Assembly (NCBI GenBank): GCA_044226035.1
Contig: JBGAHT010000007.1
Coordinates: 2,406-66,405, forward strand
DNA from: Thermomonas sp.
GTDB lineage: Bacteria > Pseudomonadota > Gammaproteobacteria > Xanthomonadales > Xanthomonadaceae
Length of the DNA: 64,000 nt
Reading direction: 5' to 3'
The first letter of the stretch is position 1; each line of letters starts with the position of its first letter. A program made the translations under genes and the position numbers. The notes beneath the pieces were generated by a model. The model saw only the letters and a list, made by a program, of their open reading frames with translations, was not told the DNA's origin and did not search any database. This document shows, piece after piece, positions 46,774 through 50,450 of the stretch.

Positions 46774-46806
46774 GGGAAAAAAGAAACCCGCCTCGCGGCG
46801 GGTTTC
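46774..46806. terminator. Bidirectional rho-independent terminator hairpin (gggaaaaaagaaacccgcctcgcggcgggtttc), copy 1, between the convergent aminopeptidase and rtcB
   Basis: GC-rich stem aaacccgcc/ggcgggttt flanked by A/T runs on both strands. A 33-nt identical copy lies at 50418-50450. Confidence 0.7.
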
Positions 46807-46827
46807 GTGGCCATCCATGGCCAAGGT

Positions 46828-48057
46828 TCATCCTTTGATGCAGACCACCTGGCGCAGGGTATGCACTACCTCCACCAGGTCGGACTGCGCCGCCATCACC
46901 GCGTCGATGTCCTTGTACGCGGCCGGCGACTCGTCGATCACCCCGGCGTCCTTGCGGCACTCGACGTGGGCGGTGGCTTCGCGGTGCTGGGCCAGGGTGA
47001 TTTGCGCGCGCGCCGCGGTACGGCTCATCACGCGGCCGGCACCATGGCTGCAGCTGTGGAAGCTGTCCGCGTTGCCCAGCCCACGCACGATGAAGCTCTT
47101 CGCGCCCATGCTGCCCGGGATGATCCCGAGCTCGCCGGCGCGCGCGCTGACCGCGCCCTTGCGGGTGACCAGCAGTTCCTGCCCGCCGTGCGTTTCCTGC
47201 TGCACGTAGTTGTGGTGGCAGTTCACCGCCATCTTTTCCAGCTGGAACTTCGGCAGGCGATGGCGCATTTCGTGCAGCACCCGCGCCATCATCGCCTCGC
47301 GGTTCTCGCGCGCGTAGTCCTGCGCCCACGACACCGCCTCCACGTAGTCGTCGAACAAGGGCTCGCCCTGCATGAAGAACGCGAGGTCCTTGTCCGGCAC
47401 GTGGAAACCGAGTACGCGCTTGCCCAGTTCCTCGCGCGCACGCTCGATGAAGTAGCTGCCGATCAGGTTGCCGGTGCCGCGCGAGCCGCTGTGCAGCATC
47501 ACCCACACCGCATCGCTCTCGTCGAGGCAGAGCTCGATGAAGTGGTTGCCGCCGCCCAGCGTGCCGATCTGGCGATCGAGCTTGTCGGTGCGGATCTTGC
47601 GGTGTTTCTGCTTGATCGCGTCCAGCCGCGCGACCAGCCCCGACTGCGCGACGCGGGTCTCGATGCTCTCCGGCAGCTTCCAGTGCTCGCCGCCGCGGCC
47701 GTTGCCGACCGGCACGCTGCGCTCGATCGAGTTGCGCAGCGGGCCGAGGTCGTCGGGCAGGTCACTGGCGCGCAGGGTGGTGCGCACCGCGGCCATGCCG
47801 CAGCCGATGTCGACGCCGACCGCGGCCGGGATGATCGCGCCGCGGGTCGGGATCACCGAACCCACGGTCGCGCCCTTGCCCAGGTGCACGTCGGGCATCA
47901 CCGCGACCCACGGCCCGACGAACGGGATCGACGCGATGTTGCGCAGTTGCTCGTGCGCCTGCGGCTCCAGCGGCACGCCGCGCACCCAGCCCTTGATCGG
48001 GGTGGCGCTGCCCTCGGCGTGCAGCAGTTCGAATTGCGATTGGGTTTGCATGTTCAT
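46828..48057 (-). CDS. rtcB: RNA-splicing ligase RtcB
   Basis: 409 aa. ...GGGNHFIEL...HSGSRGTGN...NCHHNY...SCSHGAGR are conserved RtcB metal- and GMP-binding motifs. Confidence 0.85.
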   Translation of the reverse strand: MNMQTQSQFELLHAEGSATPIKGWVRGVPLEPQAHEQLRNIASIPFVGPWVAVMPDVHLGKGATVGSVIPTRGAIIPAAVGVDIGCGMAAVRTTLRASDLPDDLGPLRNSIERSVPVGNGRGGEHWKLPESIETRVAQSGLVARLDAIKQKHRKIRTDKLDRQIGTLGGGNHFIELCLDESDAVWVMLHSGSRGTGNLIGSYFIERAREELGKRVLGFHVPDKDLAFFMQGEPLFDDYVEAVSWAQDYARENREAMMARVLHEMRHRLPKFQLEKMAVNCHHNYVQQETHGGQELLVTRKGAVSARAGELGIIPGSMGAKSFIVRGLGNADSFHSCSHGAGRVMSRTAARAQITLAQHREATAHVECRKDAGVIDESPAAYKDIDAVMAAQSDLVEVVHTLRQVVCIKG

Positions 48058-48111
48058 GTCTCTTCAGTCCATTGAAACCTGCGCGATGCGTCCTTGCGCC
48101 GCGCAGGGGTG

Positions 48112-49233
48112 TCACTTCATCGTCACCAGCTGCTTCAGCACGCCATCCAGGCCGCCGAACACGGTGAGCTTGTCGATCTTCTCGGTGACCTTCTCCAGGG
48201 CCTCGAGCTCCTTCAGGCGCATCAGCACCGGGCTGTCCTCGATCAGCTTGGCGGTGTTGAGCAGGGAACGCGTGGCGTTCGCCTCCTCGCGACGGCGGAT
48301 CACGTTAGCTTGCGCCGCCTTTTCCGCCTGCACCACGCTGTTGAGGATGTCCTTCATCTCGCCCGGCAGGATCACGTCCTTCACGCCGACACCCAGCACC
48401 TCGATGCCCAGCTCGGTCACCCGGCCGCGCACGTAGCCGAAGATGTCGGCATCGAGCGAGGCCTTGTCGCCGAGCAGCTCGTCCAGCGTCTTGGCGGCGA
48501 TCGCCTTGCGCAGGCCGAACTGCAGCTCGCGGTACACGTAGTCGCCGAACTTGGCGACCCTGGTGCGCGCGGCCACCGGGTCGGTGACGCGGATGCTGGC
48601 GGCCAGGTTGACGCGCAGGCTGACCTTGTCGCGGGTCAGCAACTCCTGGCCCGAGACCTCCAGCGACTGCACGCGCAACTCGATCACGTCCACCGCCACG
48701 TTCTTGCGGAAGTTCCAGAACGCGTGGTTGCCGGCCTCCAGCACCTGCACCAGCTTGCCGTCGATGAACACCAGGCCCGCCGACTCCGCCGGCACGTCCG
48801 CCACGACGGCGAGCTTGCCCAGCGTGCCGAGCTGGCGCAGGCGGTTGGCGACATCGCCGCGCACCGCCAAGCCATCGGCCAGCGACACGCGCTCGACCTC
48901 GACCTTCACCAGCCCGCGCCAGTACAAGCGACGCGAACCCGGCGCCAGCACGTCCTCCAGCTTGCCGTTCTTCGACACCAGGCCGACTTCGTCGGCGCCG
49001 ATGTCGGCGAACACGAAGGTCTCGCCCAGCCGCGCGCCGAGGCGCGCGATCAGCGCGTCCACGTCGTGGCCGGCGTACTCCGGCGCGGCGATGTTGTACG
49101 TACGCACCTCGATGCGCGTGAGCGGGTCGAACATGCGGTGCACGCCCGGCTCCAGCACGCGCTCGAACTGGCGATTGCGATACAGCAAGGCGCGCTCGCC
49201 GTCGCCGATCACGATTCTCTTGCTCCAGAACAT
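48112..49233 (-). CDS. SPFH/band-7 (slipin-like) domain protein, 374 aa
   Basis: C-terminal part LTRDKVSLRVNLAASIRVTDP...LGIEVLGVGVKDVILPGEMKDILNSVVQAEKAAQANVIRRREEANATR is typical SPFH. The N-terminal ~150 aa is a distinct domain. Lies 55 bp upstream of rtcB on the same strand. Confidence 0.7.
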   Translation of the reverse strand: MFWSKRIVIGDGERALLYRNRQFERVLEPGVHRMFDPLTRIEVRTYNIAAPEYAGHDVDALIARLGARLGETFVFADIGADEVGLVSKNGKLEDVLAPGSRRLYWRGLVKVEVERVSLADGLAVRGDVANRLRQLGTLGKLAVVADVPAESAGLVFIDGKLVQVLEAGNHAFWNFRKNVAVDVIELRVQSLEVSGQELLTRDKVSLRVNLAASIRVTDPVAARTRVAKFGDYVYRELQFGLRKAIAAKTLDELLGDKASLDADIFGYVRGRVTELGIEVLGVGVKDVILPGEMKDILNSVVQAEKAAQANVIRRREEANATRSLLNTAKLIEDSPVLMRLKELEALEKVTEKIDKLTVFGGLDGVLKQLVTMK

Positions 49234-49603
49234 GGGTAACTCTCCTTGTTGGTCCTGGTGGTCCGATCCGTTTTCTTCGCGATGGATCGGTTTCGCGTTT
49301 GAAGCGTTTGACTTTGTGGAAGGGGCTTCAGCCCCGAGTTCCTTGGATCGGGGCTGAAATCCCTCCCATGCCCAGCTGGAAAAGGTGGAAACGCCCCTGA
49401 CGTCGATGCCGCGGAGCCGGCGCGCTGTCCGTGCGGAGGCCTGCCGTTGCCGGCATCGCGGTGCATTGCGATCCCGATCCATTGCAGGCCCGCGCGCTTC
49501 GAGGGCGGCGGCCCGGCGACATCGCCGCTGCGTATCCATCGACATCGCGATGCATTGCGATGAAGCGGAACACGCACGGGGCGTTTCCTGGTGCGGGCTT
49601 GCG

Positions 49604-49770
49604 CCCGTGGTCCAGATTTACAGTCTGGTTTGGAGCGGGATTCGAACCCGCGACTCTCGGTGTTCAACCGATGCTCTACCCGACTGAGCTATCCAGTGGT
49701 GGACGAACCGGATTCGAACCGGTGGCCAACGGCTTGCGCCGCTGCTCGACCTCTGAGCTTTCGTCCGCTC
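49604..49770 (-). ncRNA. Two tandem tRNA-like modules (possible Y-RNA-like tRNA mimics or degenerate tRNA genes)
   Basis: Minus-strand reading gives module 1 GGACGAAAGCTCAGAGGTCGAGC...CACCGGTTCGAATCCGGTTCGTCCACCA. It has a D-arm, a canonical T-arm, a pairing acceptor stem and a 3' CCA, but the anticodon arm is too short. Module 2 is ...GGATAGCTCAGTCGGGTAGAGCATCGGTTGAACACCGAGAGTCGCGGGTTCGAATCCCGCTCCAAACC. It has perfect D- and T-arms and a GAA anticodon-like loop with C37, and its 5' and 3' acceptor strands do not pair. tRNAscan-SE has not been run. Confidence 0.4.
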
Positions 49771-50417
49771 GCGGAATACCTTCTCCCGATCCCCGGCATA
49801 CGCCACGGCAGCGCCGCGCGCACCGGACGGGCCTTGCGAACCCGTGCCGCTGTGGACCGTTCGAGCGATGTTCCGCATTGGCGCCTCCGACGTGAATCGA
49901 AAGCGCCAACCCGTGTGCGACTGCATCCGCTTGCCGCCCGTGCCGAAGCATCCAGGCACGGCGCATCCCTGCGCCTTCGCGACGTTTCCCTGCCTCGGGC
50001 CAGCAATGCCCGGATGCTTCGGGAGCGCGATGCAATCGCGTTTTGATCGTGTGGTGGATCCCTTTGCGAACGCCGGAAACGAAACGCCCCCGGGTGCTGG
50101 AACCCGAGGGCGTTCGCGTGGCCTCGGGAGATCGGGGTGACCGATCTCCGCGATGCGGGGGGATCAGTCGATGGAGGTGGAGCCGAAGTAATTCCGCATG
50201 CCGCGAAGCGACAGCGCGTCGCGCCATTCGCACGCGCGCAGGCCCGCATCGCGCTTGCGCGATGGCGTCGATGCTGCGATGTGGAATGAATGCGTCATGG
50301 AGTTCGTGTGTTCGGGAGATCGCCGATTGGCGAAGGTCGCGCACCTTACGCGCGTTGCCTTCATTCCGCAACAGAAATTTCACGTTGCCGACGAGCGGCA
50401 CAGTCCGTGAGCCAGAC

Positions 50418-50450
50418 GGGAAAAAAGAAACCCGCCTCGCGGCGGGTTTC
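50418..50450. terminator. Rho-independent terminator downstream of rpmG (copy 2 of the 33-nt hairpin)
   Basis: gggaaaaaagaaacccgcctcgcggcgggtttc followed by ttttcg. On the minus strand the hairpin is followed by tttcttttttccc. Confidence 0.7.

Follow-up and report, generated by a model that had tools for sequence, protein, structure and literature searches.

We asked what is encoded in a long intergenic gap that lies in front of an RNA ligase gene of Thermomonas sp. The locus occupies positions 46774-50450 of a 64,000-nt stretch of contig JBGAHT010000007.1 (GenBank assembly GCA_044226035.1), referred to here as the window. On the minus strand, the ribosomal protein genes rpmB (50707-50943) and rpmG (50529-50693) are followed by a 33-nt repeat, a gap of 1.18 kb, a gene for an SPFH/Band-7 protein, the gene for the RNA ligase RtcB and a second copy of the 33-nt repeat. 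A preliminary description of this DNA had noted two tRNA-like modules in the gap and proposed an undescribed RNA-repair or RNA-surveillance module. What it observed is real for the most part and confirmed in part, and its interpretation is partly supported. We conclude that the locus is very probably a Band-7(SPFH)-RtcB RNA-repair module with its b7a-tRNA, short for 'band-7-associated tRNA', and that the gap is a structured-RNA gene.

A Band-7-RtcB module and its relatives

As quoted in a passage of a 2018 preprint, Burroughs and Aravind predicted in 2016 that a b7a-tRNA is encoded next to Band-7 and RtcB genes, as the counterpart of the Ro60-YrlA pairing, and in the same passage this RNA was still without experimental validation (bioRxiv 10.1101/312249). 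The rtc locus of Pseudomonas aeruginosa has since been noted to contain an SPFH gene (2026, PMC13086221), and in the later literature we found nothing further on Band-7. The locus studied here shares with the b7a-tRNA system, in its quoted form, a Band-7 gene by RtcB, an adjoining predicted non-coding RNA resembling tRNA and the lack of Ro60, and nothing in that quotation speaks against membership. The module that had been called undescribed is therefore a rediscovery of the combination predicted in 2016. What goes beyond the quoted 'tRNA-like RNA' is an arrangement of tandem tRNA domains in an RNA of ~0.95 kb, with a predicted promoter, a probable attenuator, a mimic hairpin and hypervariable anticodon positions. 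As far as we checked, this detailed architecture is neither in Rfam nor described elsewhere, the original 2016 definition being available to us by quotation.

The two protein genes are as follows.

46828-48057, minus strand: RtcB RNA ligase, 409 aa (Pfam RtcB, E = 1e-124)
48112-49233, minus strand: SPFH/Band-7 ('slipin') protein, 373 aa (Pfam Band_7, E = 4e-30, residues 147-318)

As had been noted, they lie on the same strand, with 54 nt between the coding sequences, and this adjoining pair is conserved in most of the ~200 related loci that we compared. These loci comprise 80 from a genome scan (Lysobacterales and neighbours) and at least 120 metagenomic loci reached through the core motif of the RNA. 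An adjoining tRNA-like non-coding element is likewise present (44.0 and 43.4 bits against the Rfam tRNA model, with cloverleaf covariation). The reported absence of rtcA and rtcR also holds, as gene tables covering ±8 kb in contigs 98.7-99% identical to the window contain no RtcA, RtcR or Ro60.

A search of the SPFH N-terminus for TROVE or vWA similarity, which the preliminary description had suggested, gave none; the only matches of the N-terminal 150 aa, two in number, are to the first strands of Band_7 itself. The closest solved structures are stomatin and QmcA assemblies of 16-26 chains. Since the sequence, as read, begins without an evident hydrophobic segment, it is plausible by analogy that the protein forms a soluble ring or cage. 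An AlphaFold2 model built on a 20-sequence alignment had a mean pLDDT (predicted local distance difference test) of 56, with the N-terminal 145 residues below 50, and was not used. SPFH homologs number 7844, the closest being in Thermomonas, Luteimonas, Lysobacter and Pseudoxanthomonas. Bacteria that can be cultivated and carry the module include Xanthomonas phaseoli ATCC 49119, Lysobacter soli and Dyella marensis.

Which members of the module belong together can be read from the related loci. SPFH is followed by RtcB in most genome loci, with rpmBG upstream in Thermomonas-like genomes only, and in the metagenomic matches to the core motif SPFH stands 0.4-0.6 kb after the second tRNA-like module (module B) wherever the contig reaches that far. 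In ~10% of loci, SPFH is followed by unrelated genes and RtcB is missing there. Because the RNA is always found with SPFH while RtcB is missing in that tenth of loci, the RNA-SPFH pair appears to be the core of the system and the ligase its usual third member; where RtcB is missing, it is probably dispensable or encoded elsewhere. Loci with RNA and SPFH and no adjoining RtcB include L095, L118, L133, L165, L178, L186, L205 and L207, and also L015, L017, L025, L038, L062, L065, L067 and L069. One example of a gene in RtcB's place encodes a secreted thioredoxin-like protein.

The family extends beyond the Lysobacterales. Plasmid and chromid records hold full-length SPFH homologs, 43-49% identical, in Burkholderia, Citrobacter and Escherichia coli. 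At the Burkholderia cenocepacia locus an SPFH gene (48% identical) is followed by RtcB (60% identical), and upstream of it lies a compact form of the RNA, with a GGUGCGC...GCGCAUGCC core, two T-arm modules, 'anticodon' arms capped by GNRA loops and a GNRA hairpin. On this comparison, the Lysobacterales RNA would be the elaborate form of a wider family. In E. coli STEC639 (CP061233.1, L211:3200-3360, between DUF3811 and lysC), a 'slipin family protein' shares 43% identity along the whole of its length and is followed by a nucleotidyltransferase-domain protein in RtcB's place. The 530-nt gap upstream of this slipin holds the T-arm-like UGGGUUCGAUUCCCA and a ACCAGGAACGGCC motif, and may be a degenerate relative of the same RNA. 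A metagenome-assembled genome labelled Verrucomicrobia (CAJCJI010000472.1, L055:428-4043) has ~32 tRNA genes directly upstream of the tRNA-mimic RNA, with SPFH (75% identical) and a divergent RtcB (57% identical) downstream of the tRNA array. It looks like an island of 'tRNA supply plus tRNA repair', and, given its taxonomic label, may have been acquired horizontally.

A known arrangement of this kind, Rsr(Ro60)-YrlA/YrlB-RtcB (Chen et al. 2014, PMC4201824; RF02553), likewise places a tRNA-mimicking non-coding RNA with canonical D- and T-loops beside RtcB. The YrlA-type idea put forward for this locus stands insofar as conserved tRNA mimics are tied to RtcB and SPFH occupies the place that Ro60 has in rsr-yrlA-rtcB operons, but the RNA is not a YrlA or Y RNA, and the link is one of analogy, not membership. 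A divergent YrlA or Y RNA, with SPFH replacing Ro60 as the binder of the Y-RNA stem, would account for the shared genomic niche by RtcB and for a weak match to RF02553 (30.2 bits, E = 0.0014). That score, however, is far below the gathering score of 69, and the match is a chimera of the module A T-arm and the module B D-arm. YrlA is ~110 nt long with a permuted tRNA-like domain and a Ro-binding stem, whereas covariation here backs two cloverleaves of standard order in an RNA of ~1 kb; neither a Ro60/TROVE gene within ±8 kb in the near-identical contigs nor a TROVE domain in the SPFH N-terminus is found. We regard such descent as very unlikely.

Architecture of the RNA

A blastn comparison of the window's gap showed conservation from ~50170 to ~49390, not over the tRNA-like modules alone, and a further patch near 50370-50330. 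By the comparison of related loci, the 1.2-kb gap is one minus-strand non-coding gene or leader of ~0.95 kb. Its covarying core is ~0.8 kb, and the modules are a small part of this much larger conserved element. From 5' to 3' the RNA is ordered as promoter, switch, multi-helix domain, two tRNA-shaped domains, hairpin 3, GNRA hairpin, and a rod ending in a U-run.

50343-50371, minus strand: predicted promoter, -35 TTGCGG (50371-50366), 17-nt spacer, -10 TAAGGT (50348-50343)
50171-50337, minus strand: 5' part of the RNA, weakly conserved (patchy blastn, recurring motifs), with a GNRA hairpin CAUCGC-GCAA-GCGAUG (50264-50247)
50066-50170, minus strand: attenuator-like 5' domain (alignment A2, 73 loci)
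50169-50162, minus strand: segment 0, GACUGAUC, pairing with GAUCGGUC inside hairpin 1
50149-50127, minus strand: hairpin 1, GGAGAUCGG/CCGAUCUCC
50128-50122 and 50109-50103, minus strand: antiterminator strands CCCGAGG and CCUCGGG, with covariation
50116-50080, minus strand: terminator-like hairpin, 15-bp stem then a U-rich run (to 50077)
50117-50110 and 50073-50066, minus strand: later alternative helix, GCGAACGC and GCGUUCGC
49773-49911, minus strand: middle multi-helix domain (alignment A4, 56 loci), with invariant core CCGGUGCGCGCGGCGCUGCCGUGGCGUAUGCC (49826-49795)
49699-49767, minus strand: tRNA-like module A (RF00005, 43.4 bits); acceptor and T stems covary
49631-49695, minus strand: tRNA-like module B (RF00005, 44.0 bits); anticodon stem covaries
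49612-49628, minus strand: hairpin 3, CCAGA-CUGUAAA-UCUGG, an anticodon stem-loop mimic (tRNA-Tyr GUA type), then ACCA (49611-49608)
49594-49607, minus strand: GNRA hairpin CGGGC-GCAA-GCCCG, as already described beside the modules; GGGAC-GCAA/GAAA-GUCCC in nearly all loci, and also in Burkholderia
49380-49588, minus strand: 3' rod domain, GGAAACGCCCC (49588-49578) pairing with GGGGCGUUUCC (49397-49387); U-run 49383-49380

The gap had been called free of open reading frames. Mechanical reading frames do cross it, and one of 272 aa is called in sister contigs, but the gap is not conserved as coding sequence, its stop-free stretches varying from 78 to 345 codons across loci. A protein-coding gap was ruled out by these unconserved stretches together with frequent 1-2-nt indels in loops and covariation of the RNA type.

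The two adjacent modules that first drew attention to the gap score well above the gathering score of the Rfam tRNA model RF00005 (29 bits), and the D-arm and T-arm sequences quoted for them are present in both. Module A has a 6-bp acceptor stem, D-arm, T-arm and an anticodon stem closed by a GCAA tetraloop. It is followed by ACCA (49700-49697), and a single base separates this from the start of module B. The acceptor stem of module B is 4 bp long (UGGA/UCCA), its D- and T-arms are canonical, and it has an anticodon stem of 5 bp, whose loop is 5 nt in the window (UGAAC) and 7 nt in most relatives. In a Xanthomonas locus, module B reaches 62.7 bits. Tandem T-loop motifs ~73 nt apart, ~400-500 nt upstream of SPFH, occur in most of the 80 genome loci. 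It had been stated that neither module folds into a complete cloverleaf. All four arms of both modules nevertheless align to the tRNA model, and in an alignment of 77 loci (A3) 22 of the 32 pairs show compensatory changes, 96.8% of cells are paired, and the covariation score is 0.290 against 0.114 when shuffled. A minimum-free-energy fold of the single sequence did not recover the cloverleaves (z = -2.5), which emerge from comparative analysis alone.

This conservation bears on the suggestion that the modules are decayed tRNA genes at an old integration site, accompanied by chance hairpins in GC-rich DNA. tRNA genes are indeed common integration sites, and direct repeats do flank the block. 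The architecture, however, is conserved across ~200 loci in several orders and in Burkholderia, with compensatory changes in nearly every helix and a conserved promoter, and integrase is absent. Decay is refuted by this conservation and covariation, and we give it next to no credence.

The domains on either side of the modules covary as well. In the middle domain, compensatory changes occur in 25 of the 42 pairs, with 94% of cells paired; its covariation score of 0.386 compares with 0.153 for shuffles and at most 0.085 for slid partners. In one metagenome contig (L092, Ga0075182_10064959), the core motif occurs twice, at 540-571 and 1032-1063, 492 nt apart with one module B between; either the RNA unit is duplicated in tandem there, or the assembly is at fault. 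In 61 loci the closing helix of the rod shows 96% pairing, compared with 43-60% after sliding. The interior of the rod, ~180 nt, is remarkably constant and folds as a long irregular stem. RNAalifold finds 39 pairs in the rod, and 34 of these have compensatory changes. A U-run of ~4-8 bases follows the rod in most loci, and then an unconserved spacer of 23-362 nt leads to the SPFH start.

A search of the window and of a Xanthomonas locus with Rfam 15, including GOLLD, ROOL and OLE, returned only tRNA matches and sub-threshold matches at E <= 1. The RNA resembles GOLLD, ROOL and OLE in its size (0.6-1 kb), its dense covarying structure and its physical tie to tRNA-like sequence. It differs from them in that it matches none of their models, lies by SPFH-RtcB and not in a prophage context, and has tRNA-shaped domains as integral parts.

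The predicted promoter of this RNA, of the sigma-70 type, is flanked by an A/T-rich tract upstream and a GCGCG discriminator downstream, with a predicted start near 50337. The window's own -35 is too weak for a simple consensus scan. Across the loci, TTGCAx-N17-TAnnGT-GCGC recurs 150-218 nt upstream of hairpin 1 in 69 of 73, with an A-rich tract before it. Upstream A-tracts and GC-rich discriminators recall rRNA and tRNA promoters, and by this likeness the promoter would be of the stable-RNA type.

Downstream of the start, three alternative pairings (segment 0, the antiterminator and the later helix) compete for strands with hairpin 1 and the terminator stem. At the outermost antiterminator pair, 44 loci have C..G and 22 have U..A, 4 being exceptions, and a joint swap of the two strands to CCUUCCG/CGGAAGG is seen in the most distant loci; the terminator base that takes part in this pair covaries with its partner in the terminator stem too (GC in 39, AU in 17). 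The pairing of segment 0 with hairpin 1 reaches 7-8 of 8 pairs in 61 of the 73 loci. A fold of the nascent transcript gives this pairing and the antiterminator, and a fold of the full sequence gives hairpin 1 and the terminator (-51 vs -38.8 kcal/mol). A GC-rich stem, a U-run and a strand-sharing alternative helix, as expected of an intrinsic-terminator attenuator, are all found, with both structures conserved. The 5' domain is therefore a probable transcription attenuator, a terminator/antiterminator switch. Like T-box leaders, trp-type attenuators and riboswitch platforms, it combines exclusive helices that have a common strand, a stem with a U-run and an upstream anti-antiterminator hairpin; unlike them, it has no identified ligand, leader peptide or specifier/tRNA platform and no Rfam match. 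Two other pairings were tried. GAUCUCC:GGAGAUC as the upstream alternative is in the wrong register, GACUGAUC:GAUCGGUC being supported instead. Pairing of segment 0 with tRNA D-loops, as a sensor of tRNA halves, was rejected on reading the sequences because segment 0 is constant while D-loops vary.

Anticodon-like loops and their variability

Having found tRNA-shaped domains with odd loops, we examined what stands where an anticodon would be. ARAGORN called no tRNA in the window, rejecting both modules because loops of 4-5 nt stand in place of anticodon loops. By the usual standards these are not canonical tRNAs, with loops of GCAA and UGAAC and acceptor stems of 6 and 4 bp. In 60 relatives, ARAGORN did call the modules, and the 'anticodon' that it assigned changed with nearly every genome or was 2-4 nt long. 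Over 177 loci module B has 87 different loops, and the loop is 7 nt long in 117 of them. Among 63 distinct 7-nt arms, most positions follow the pattern of a tRNA anticodon loop.

Module B loop position 32: C in 52 of 63
Module B loop position 33: U in 43 of 63
Module B loop position 36: U in 46 of 63
Module B loop position 37: A in 55 of 63
Module B loop position 38: A in 47 of 63

All four bases are evenly represented at position 34, position 35 is unconstrained as well, and these arms hold 27 'anticodons' (commonest CAU, GUU, GAU and UGU), with no stable identity among orthologs.

These data bear on the reading of the modules as real decoding tRNAs, spare or unusual, that are cut from a long precursor. 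ARAGORN does call module B in many relatives, the Xanthomonas module B scores 62.7 bits, ACCA follows module A and the promoter resembles those of stable RNAs. A decoding role is contradicted by an 'anticodon' that changes from genome to genome and often sits in a 3-5-nt loop, by a 4-bp acceptor without CCA in register in module B and a 6-bp one in module A, and by the window's modules, in which no 7-nt loop is present and ARAGORN calls nothing. We consider decoding highly improbable. ACCA stands 3' of both module A (49700-49697) and hairpin 3 (49611-49608), and the CCA after module A, which abuts module B, is kept in ~80% of loci. This hints at processing of the RNase P or CCA type, or else at a junction in the structure.

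In loci that have hairpin 3, its stem is 5-6 bp long and its 7-nt loop follows the consensus C-U-(G/U)-U-N-A-(C/A). Its loops across loci include CUGUCAC, CUGUUAC, CUUUCAC, CUGUAAA and CUGUGAA, which we take to be the anticodon loops of tRNA-Asp, Asn-like, Glu, Tyr and His, respectively. The real tRNAs of the L055 array have loops CUGUAAA (Tyr), CUGUUAA (Asn), CUCAUAA (Met) and CUUUUAA (Lys), and the window's hairpin 3 loop, CUGUAAA, is identical to that of the tRNA-Tyr.

Variation is concentrated in these same elements. Sister contigs 98.8% identical over 12 kb are near-identical to the window for 750 nt upstream of the module B loop and then carry ~45 differing positions in 49668-49520, which covers the module B loop, hairpin 3 and the start of the rod; their version of hairpin 3 is AACGAC-CUGUACC-GUCGUU. 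Of 21 locus pairs with an identity of 98% or more in the 270 nt upstream, 6 differ in the module B arm. The module B loop, hairpin 3 and rod start are the fastest-changing parts of the RNA, and this variability may reflect selection, or local recombination combined with relaxed constraint.

The 3.6-kb block between identical terminators

The module had been described as bracketed by two identical 33-nt hairpins, and it is exactly so.

50418-50450, minus strand: 33-nt repeat copy 2, the rpmG terminator, GAAACCCGCC-GCGA-GGCGGGTTTC and a U-run
46774-46806, minus strand: 33-nt repeat copy 1, the rtcB terminator, which also serves the convergent M28 peptidase gene

The copies are identical and are the only two in the 64-kb window, where none would be expected by chance. 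On the minus strand each is a terminator of stem and U-run, one 3' of rpmG and the other 3' of rtcB.

The preliminary description proposed that the block was inserted at the rpmBG terminator and that related genomes be checked for its absence. Such genomes exist. In contig L090, which is 99.2% identical on both flanks, rpmG is directly followed by the M28 peptidase gene and exactly window 46807-50417 is missing; the alignment breaks at window positions 50417 and 46806, and the 34-nt overlap corresponds to a single copy of the repeat. L081, a more distant relative, also lacks the block, and contigs L083-L089, reached through the L33 protein and 98.7-99% identical to the window, carry it. Presence or absence of the 3.6-kb block is a real polymorphism.

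These comparisons fit an event in either direction. A recent insertion at the rpmG terminator with duplication of 33 bp would account for the empty site with its single repeat and 99.2% identical flanks, for the similar absence in L081 and for the location of the module elsewhere in the genome in most genera. Alternatively, the block would be ancestral here and some strains would have lost it by deletion. In the Thermomonas genomes L001 and L002 and several metagenomic contigs, which are more distant from the window, the block stands right after rpmG. The L001/L002 identities of SPFH (93%) and RtcB (96%) indicate a divergence like that of the neighbouring ribosomal proteins (L33 93%, L28 85%). 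In L001, moreover, the rtcB terminator already resembles the 33-mer and the rpmG terminator differs from it. Direct repeats and an empty site are part of the signature of site-specific insertion, but the other parts are wanting: the block contains the RNA, SPFH and RtcB and no recombinase, transposase or integrase, and among 51 other genomes just 1 has the module between repeats of at least 14 nt, which rules out a general signature. Two identical 33-nt repeats are also an obvious substrate for deletion. Because distant Thermomonas carry the block with flank-like divergence, deletion between the repeats is at least as likely as recent insertion, which we consider possible if somewhat doubtful.

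Two further features of the window also look polymorphic. The region 3' of rpmG (window 50451-50530) holds two perfect hairpins, TGACTTCCGCGCAGCGGAAGTCA (overlapping the stop codon) and CCCCGGACATGATCCGGGG; L083, 98.7% identical, has other hairpins in their place, with 44 differences in ~100 nt. This looks like a polymorphic insert of the repetitive extragenic palindrome or miniature inverted-repeat transposable element type. L083 and L090 also share an extra element of ~85-100 nt at the position of window 57185-57225, which is 88-89% identical to window 26076-26161 and is apparently a small repeat, dispersed and differing in presence from strain to strain.

Possible roles of the RNA

Given the constant company of RNA and SPFH and the likeness of the loops to anticodon loops, the explanation that we favour, and hold to be somewhat better than even, is a Band-7(SPFH)-RtcB repair module in which the tRNA-mimic RNA partners SPFH and serves as bait, competitor or sensor, with RtcB resealing. 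The RNA would be made abundantly from its stable-RNA-like promoter, with part of the transcription continuing into SPFH-rtcB; where relatives have a spacer of no more than 23-45 nt (L067, L057), co-transcription is forced. The RNA may bind a ring- or cage-forming soluble SPFH oligomer as Y RNA does Ro60, and for such a particle we put the chances at about even, by analogy. Its tRNA-shaped surfaces and copies of anticodon loops could then be a bait, a competitor or a sensor towards enzymes attacking anticodon loops, a role suggested by the mimicry itself; that the RNA is specifically a decoy or sensor for anticodon nucleases is a tentative and rather doubtful proposal. RtcB would reseal breaks with 2',3'-cyclic-phosphate and 5'-OH ends, and the 5' switch would set the amounts of RNA, SPFH and RtcB. 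Sealing of such ends by RtcB is itself established, in the accounts given by the preprint passage and by a further paper (bioRxiv 10.1101/312249; PMC7790460), and a cofactor or competitor role in tRNA damage, like the one proposed here, has been put forward for YrlA (PMC7790460).

Several observations weigh against this explanation. Both modules of the window have short loops (GCAA and UGAAC), and here hairpin 3 alone could be an anticodon bait. In Burkholderia both modules are capped by tetraloops and hairpin 3 is absent, so anticodon mimicry is not family-wide. The variation at positions 34 and 35 could be mere lack of constraint, and the window and L084 differ by a divergent tract of ~150 nt that would fit ordinary recombination. 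In the window's internal terminator, the U-run is broken (GUUUCGUUUCC). The SPFH and RtcB proteins have no model in PADLOC and gave no match there, and neither an SPFH relative nor the RNA core motif was found in viral contigs.

The main rival is that the 0.95 kb are a purely cis-acting leader of SPFH-rtcB, in which the tRNA mimics and hairpin 3 are sensors. Cleavage by an anticodon nuclease, or binding of a factor that recognises tRNA or of tRNA halves, would alter folding, stability or read-through and so turn on the ligase, with no free particle formed. The terminator/antiterminator switch with its three-way covariation, the second terminator-like helix and U-run just before the spacer, and the short spacers of L067 and L057 all fit a leader. 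RtcR is absent nearby, so another regulator would be needed, and operons of the RtcR type are known to sense tRNA halves (PMC7790460). A leader accounts poorly for an RNA that remains with SPFH even where RtcB is missing, for a spacer that is unconserved and as long as 362 nt, and for a stable-RNA-like promoter and ~800 nt of tight covariation that exceed the needs of known leaders. As the whole account we think it unlikely, but it is compatible with the bait-and-repair explanation, and the two are not exclusive.

The SPFH-RNA partnership also has a possible eukaryotic echo. The vault is a cage of MVP (major vault protein), which has a stomatin/SPFH-like shoulder domain, with small vault RNAs and the TROVE protein TEP1. 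Judged from its genes, our locus may likewise couple a putatively cage-forming protein of the SPFH fold with a dedicated small structured RNA, echoing the pairing of Ro/TROVE proteins with Y RNA; vault RNAs differ in being ~100 nt long and not tRNA-shaped. One could imagine, as an unlikely extension, that the b7a-tRNA is the visible tip of a ~1-kb RNA in a vault-like SPFH ribonucleoprotein. The two tRNA-shaped domains and the copy of an anticodon stem-loop would be exchangeable bait, tuned from strain to strain to the anticodon nucleases encountered (colicin, contact-dependent inhibition or phage-defence type), and with the terminator/antiterminator switch and RtcB the whole would be a self-regulating device for sensing, decoy and repair of tRNA damage.

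What bacterial RtcB seals, and why it so often keeps company with tRNA-like RNAs, is a standing question, and this locus with its ~200 relatives offers a testable map of transcription start, switch, domain boundaries and variable loops. Were the ideas of bait and particle to fail, what is left would still be an RNA family of large size and strong covariation for which Rfam has no entry. If an RNA-SPFH particle with a bait function does exist, RNA-based defence or repair would gain a device of a new kind, and one that is a bacterial counterpart to the Ro-Y RNA particle and possibly to vaults.

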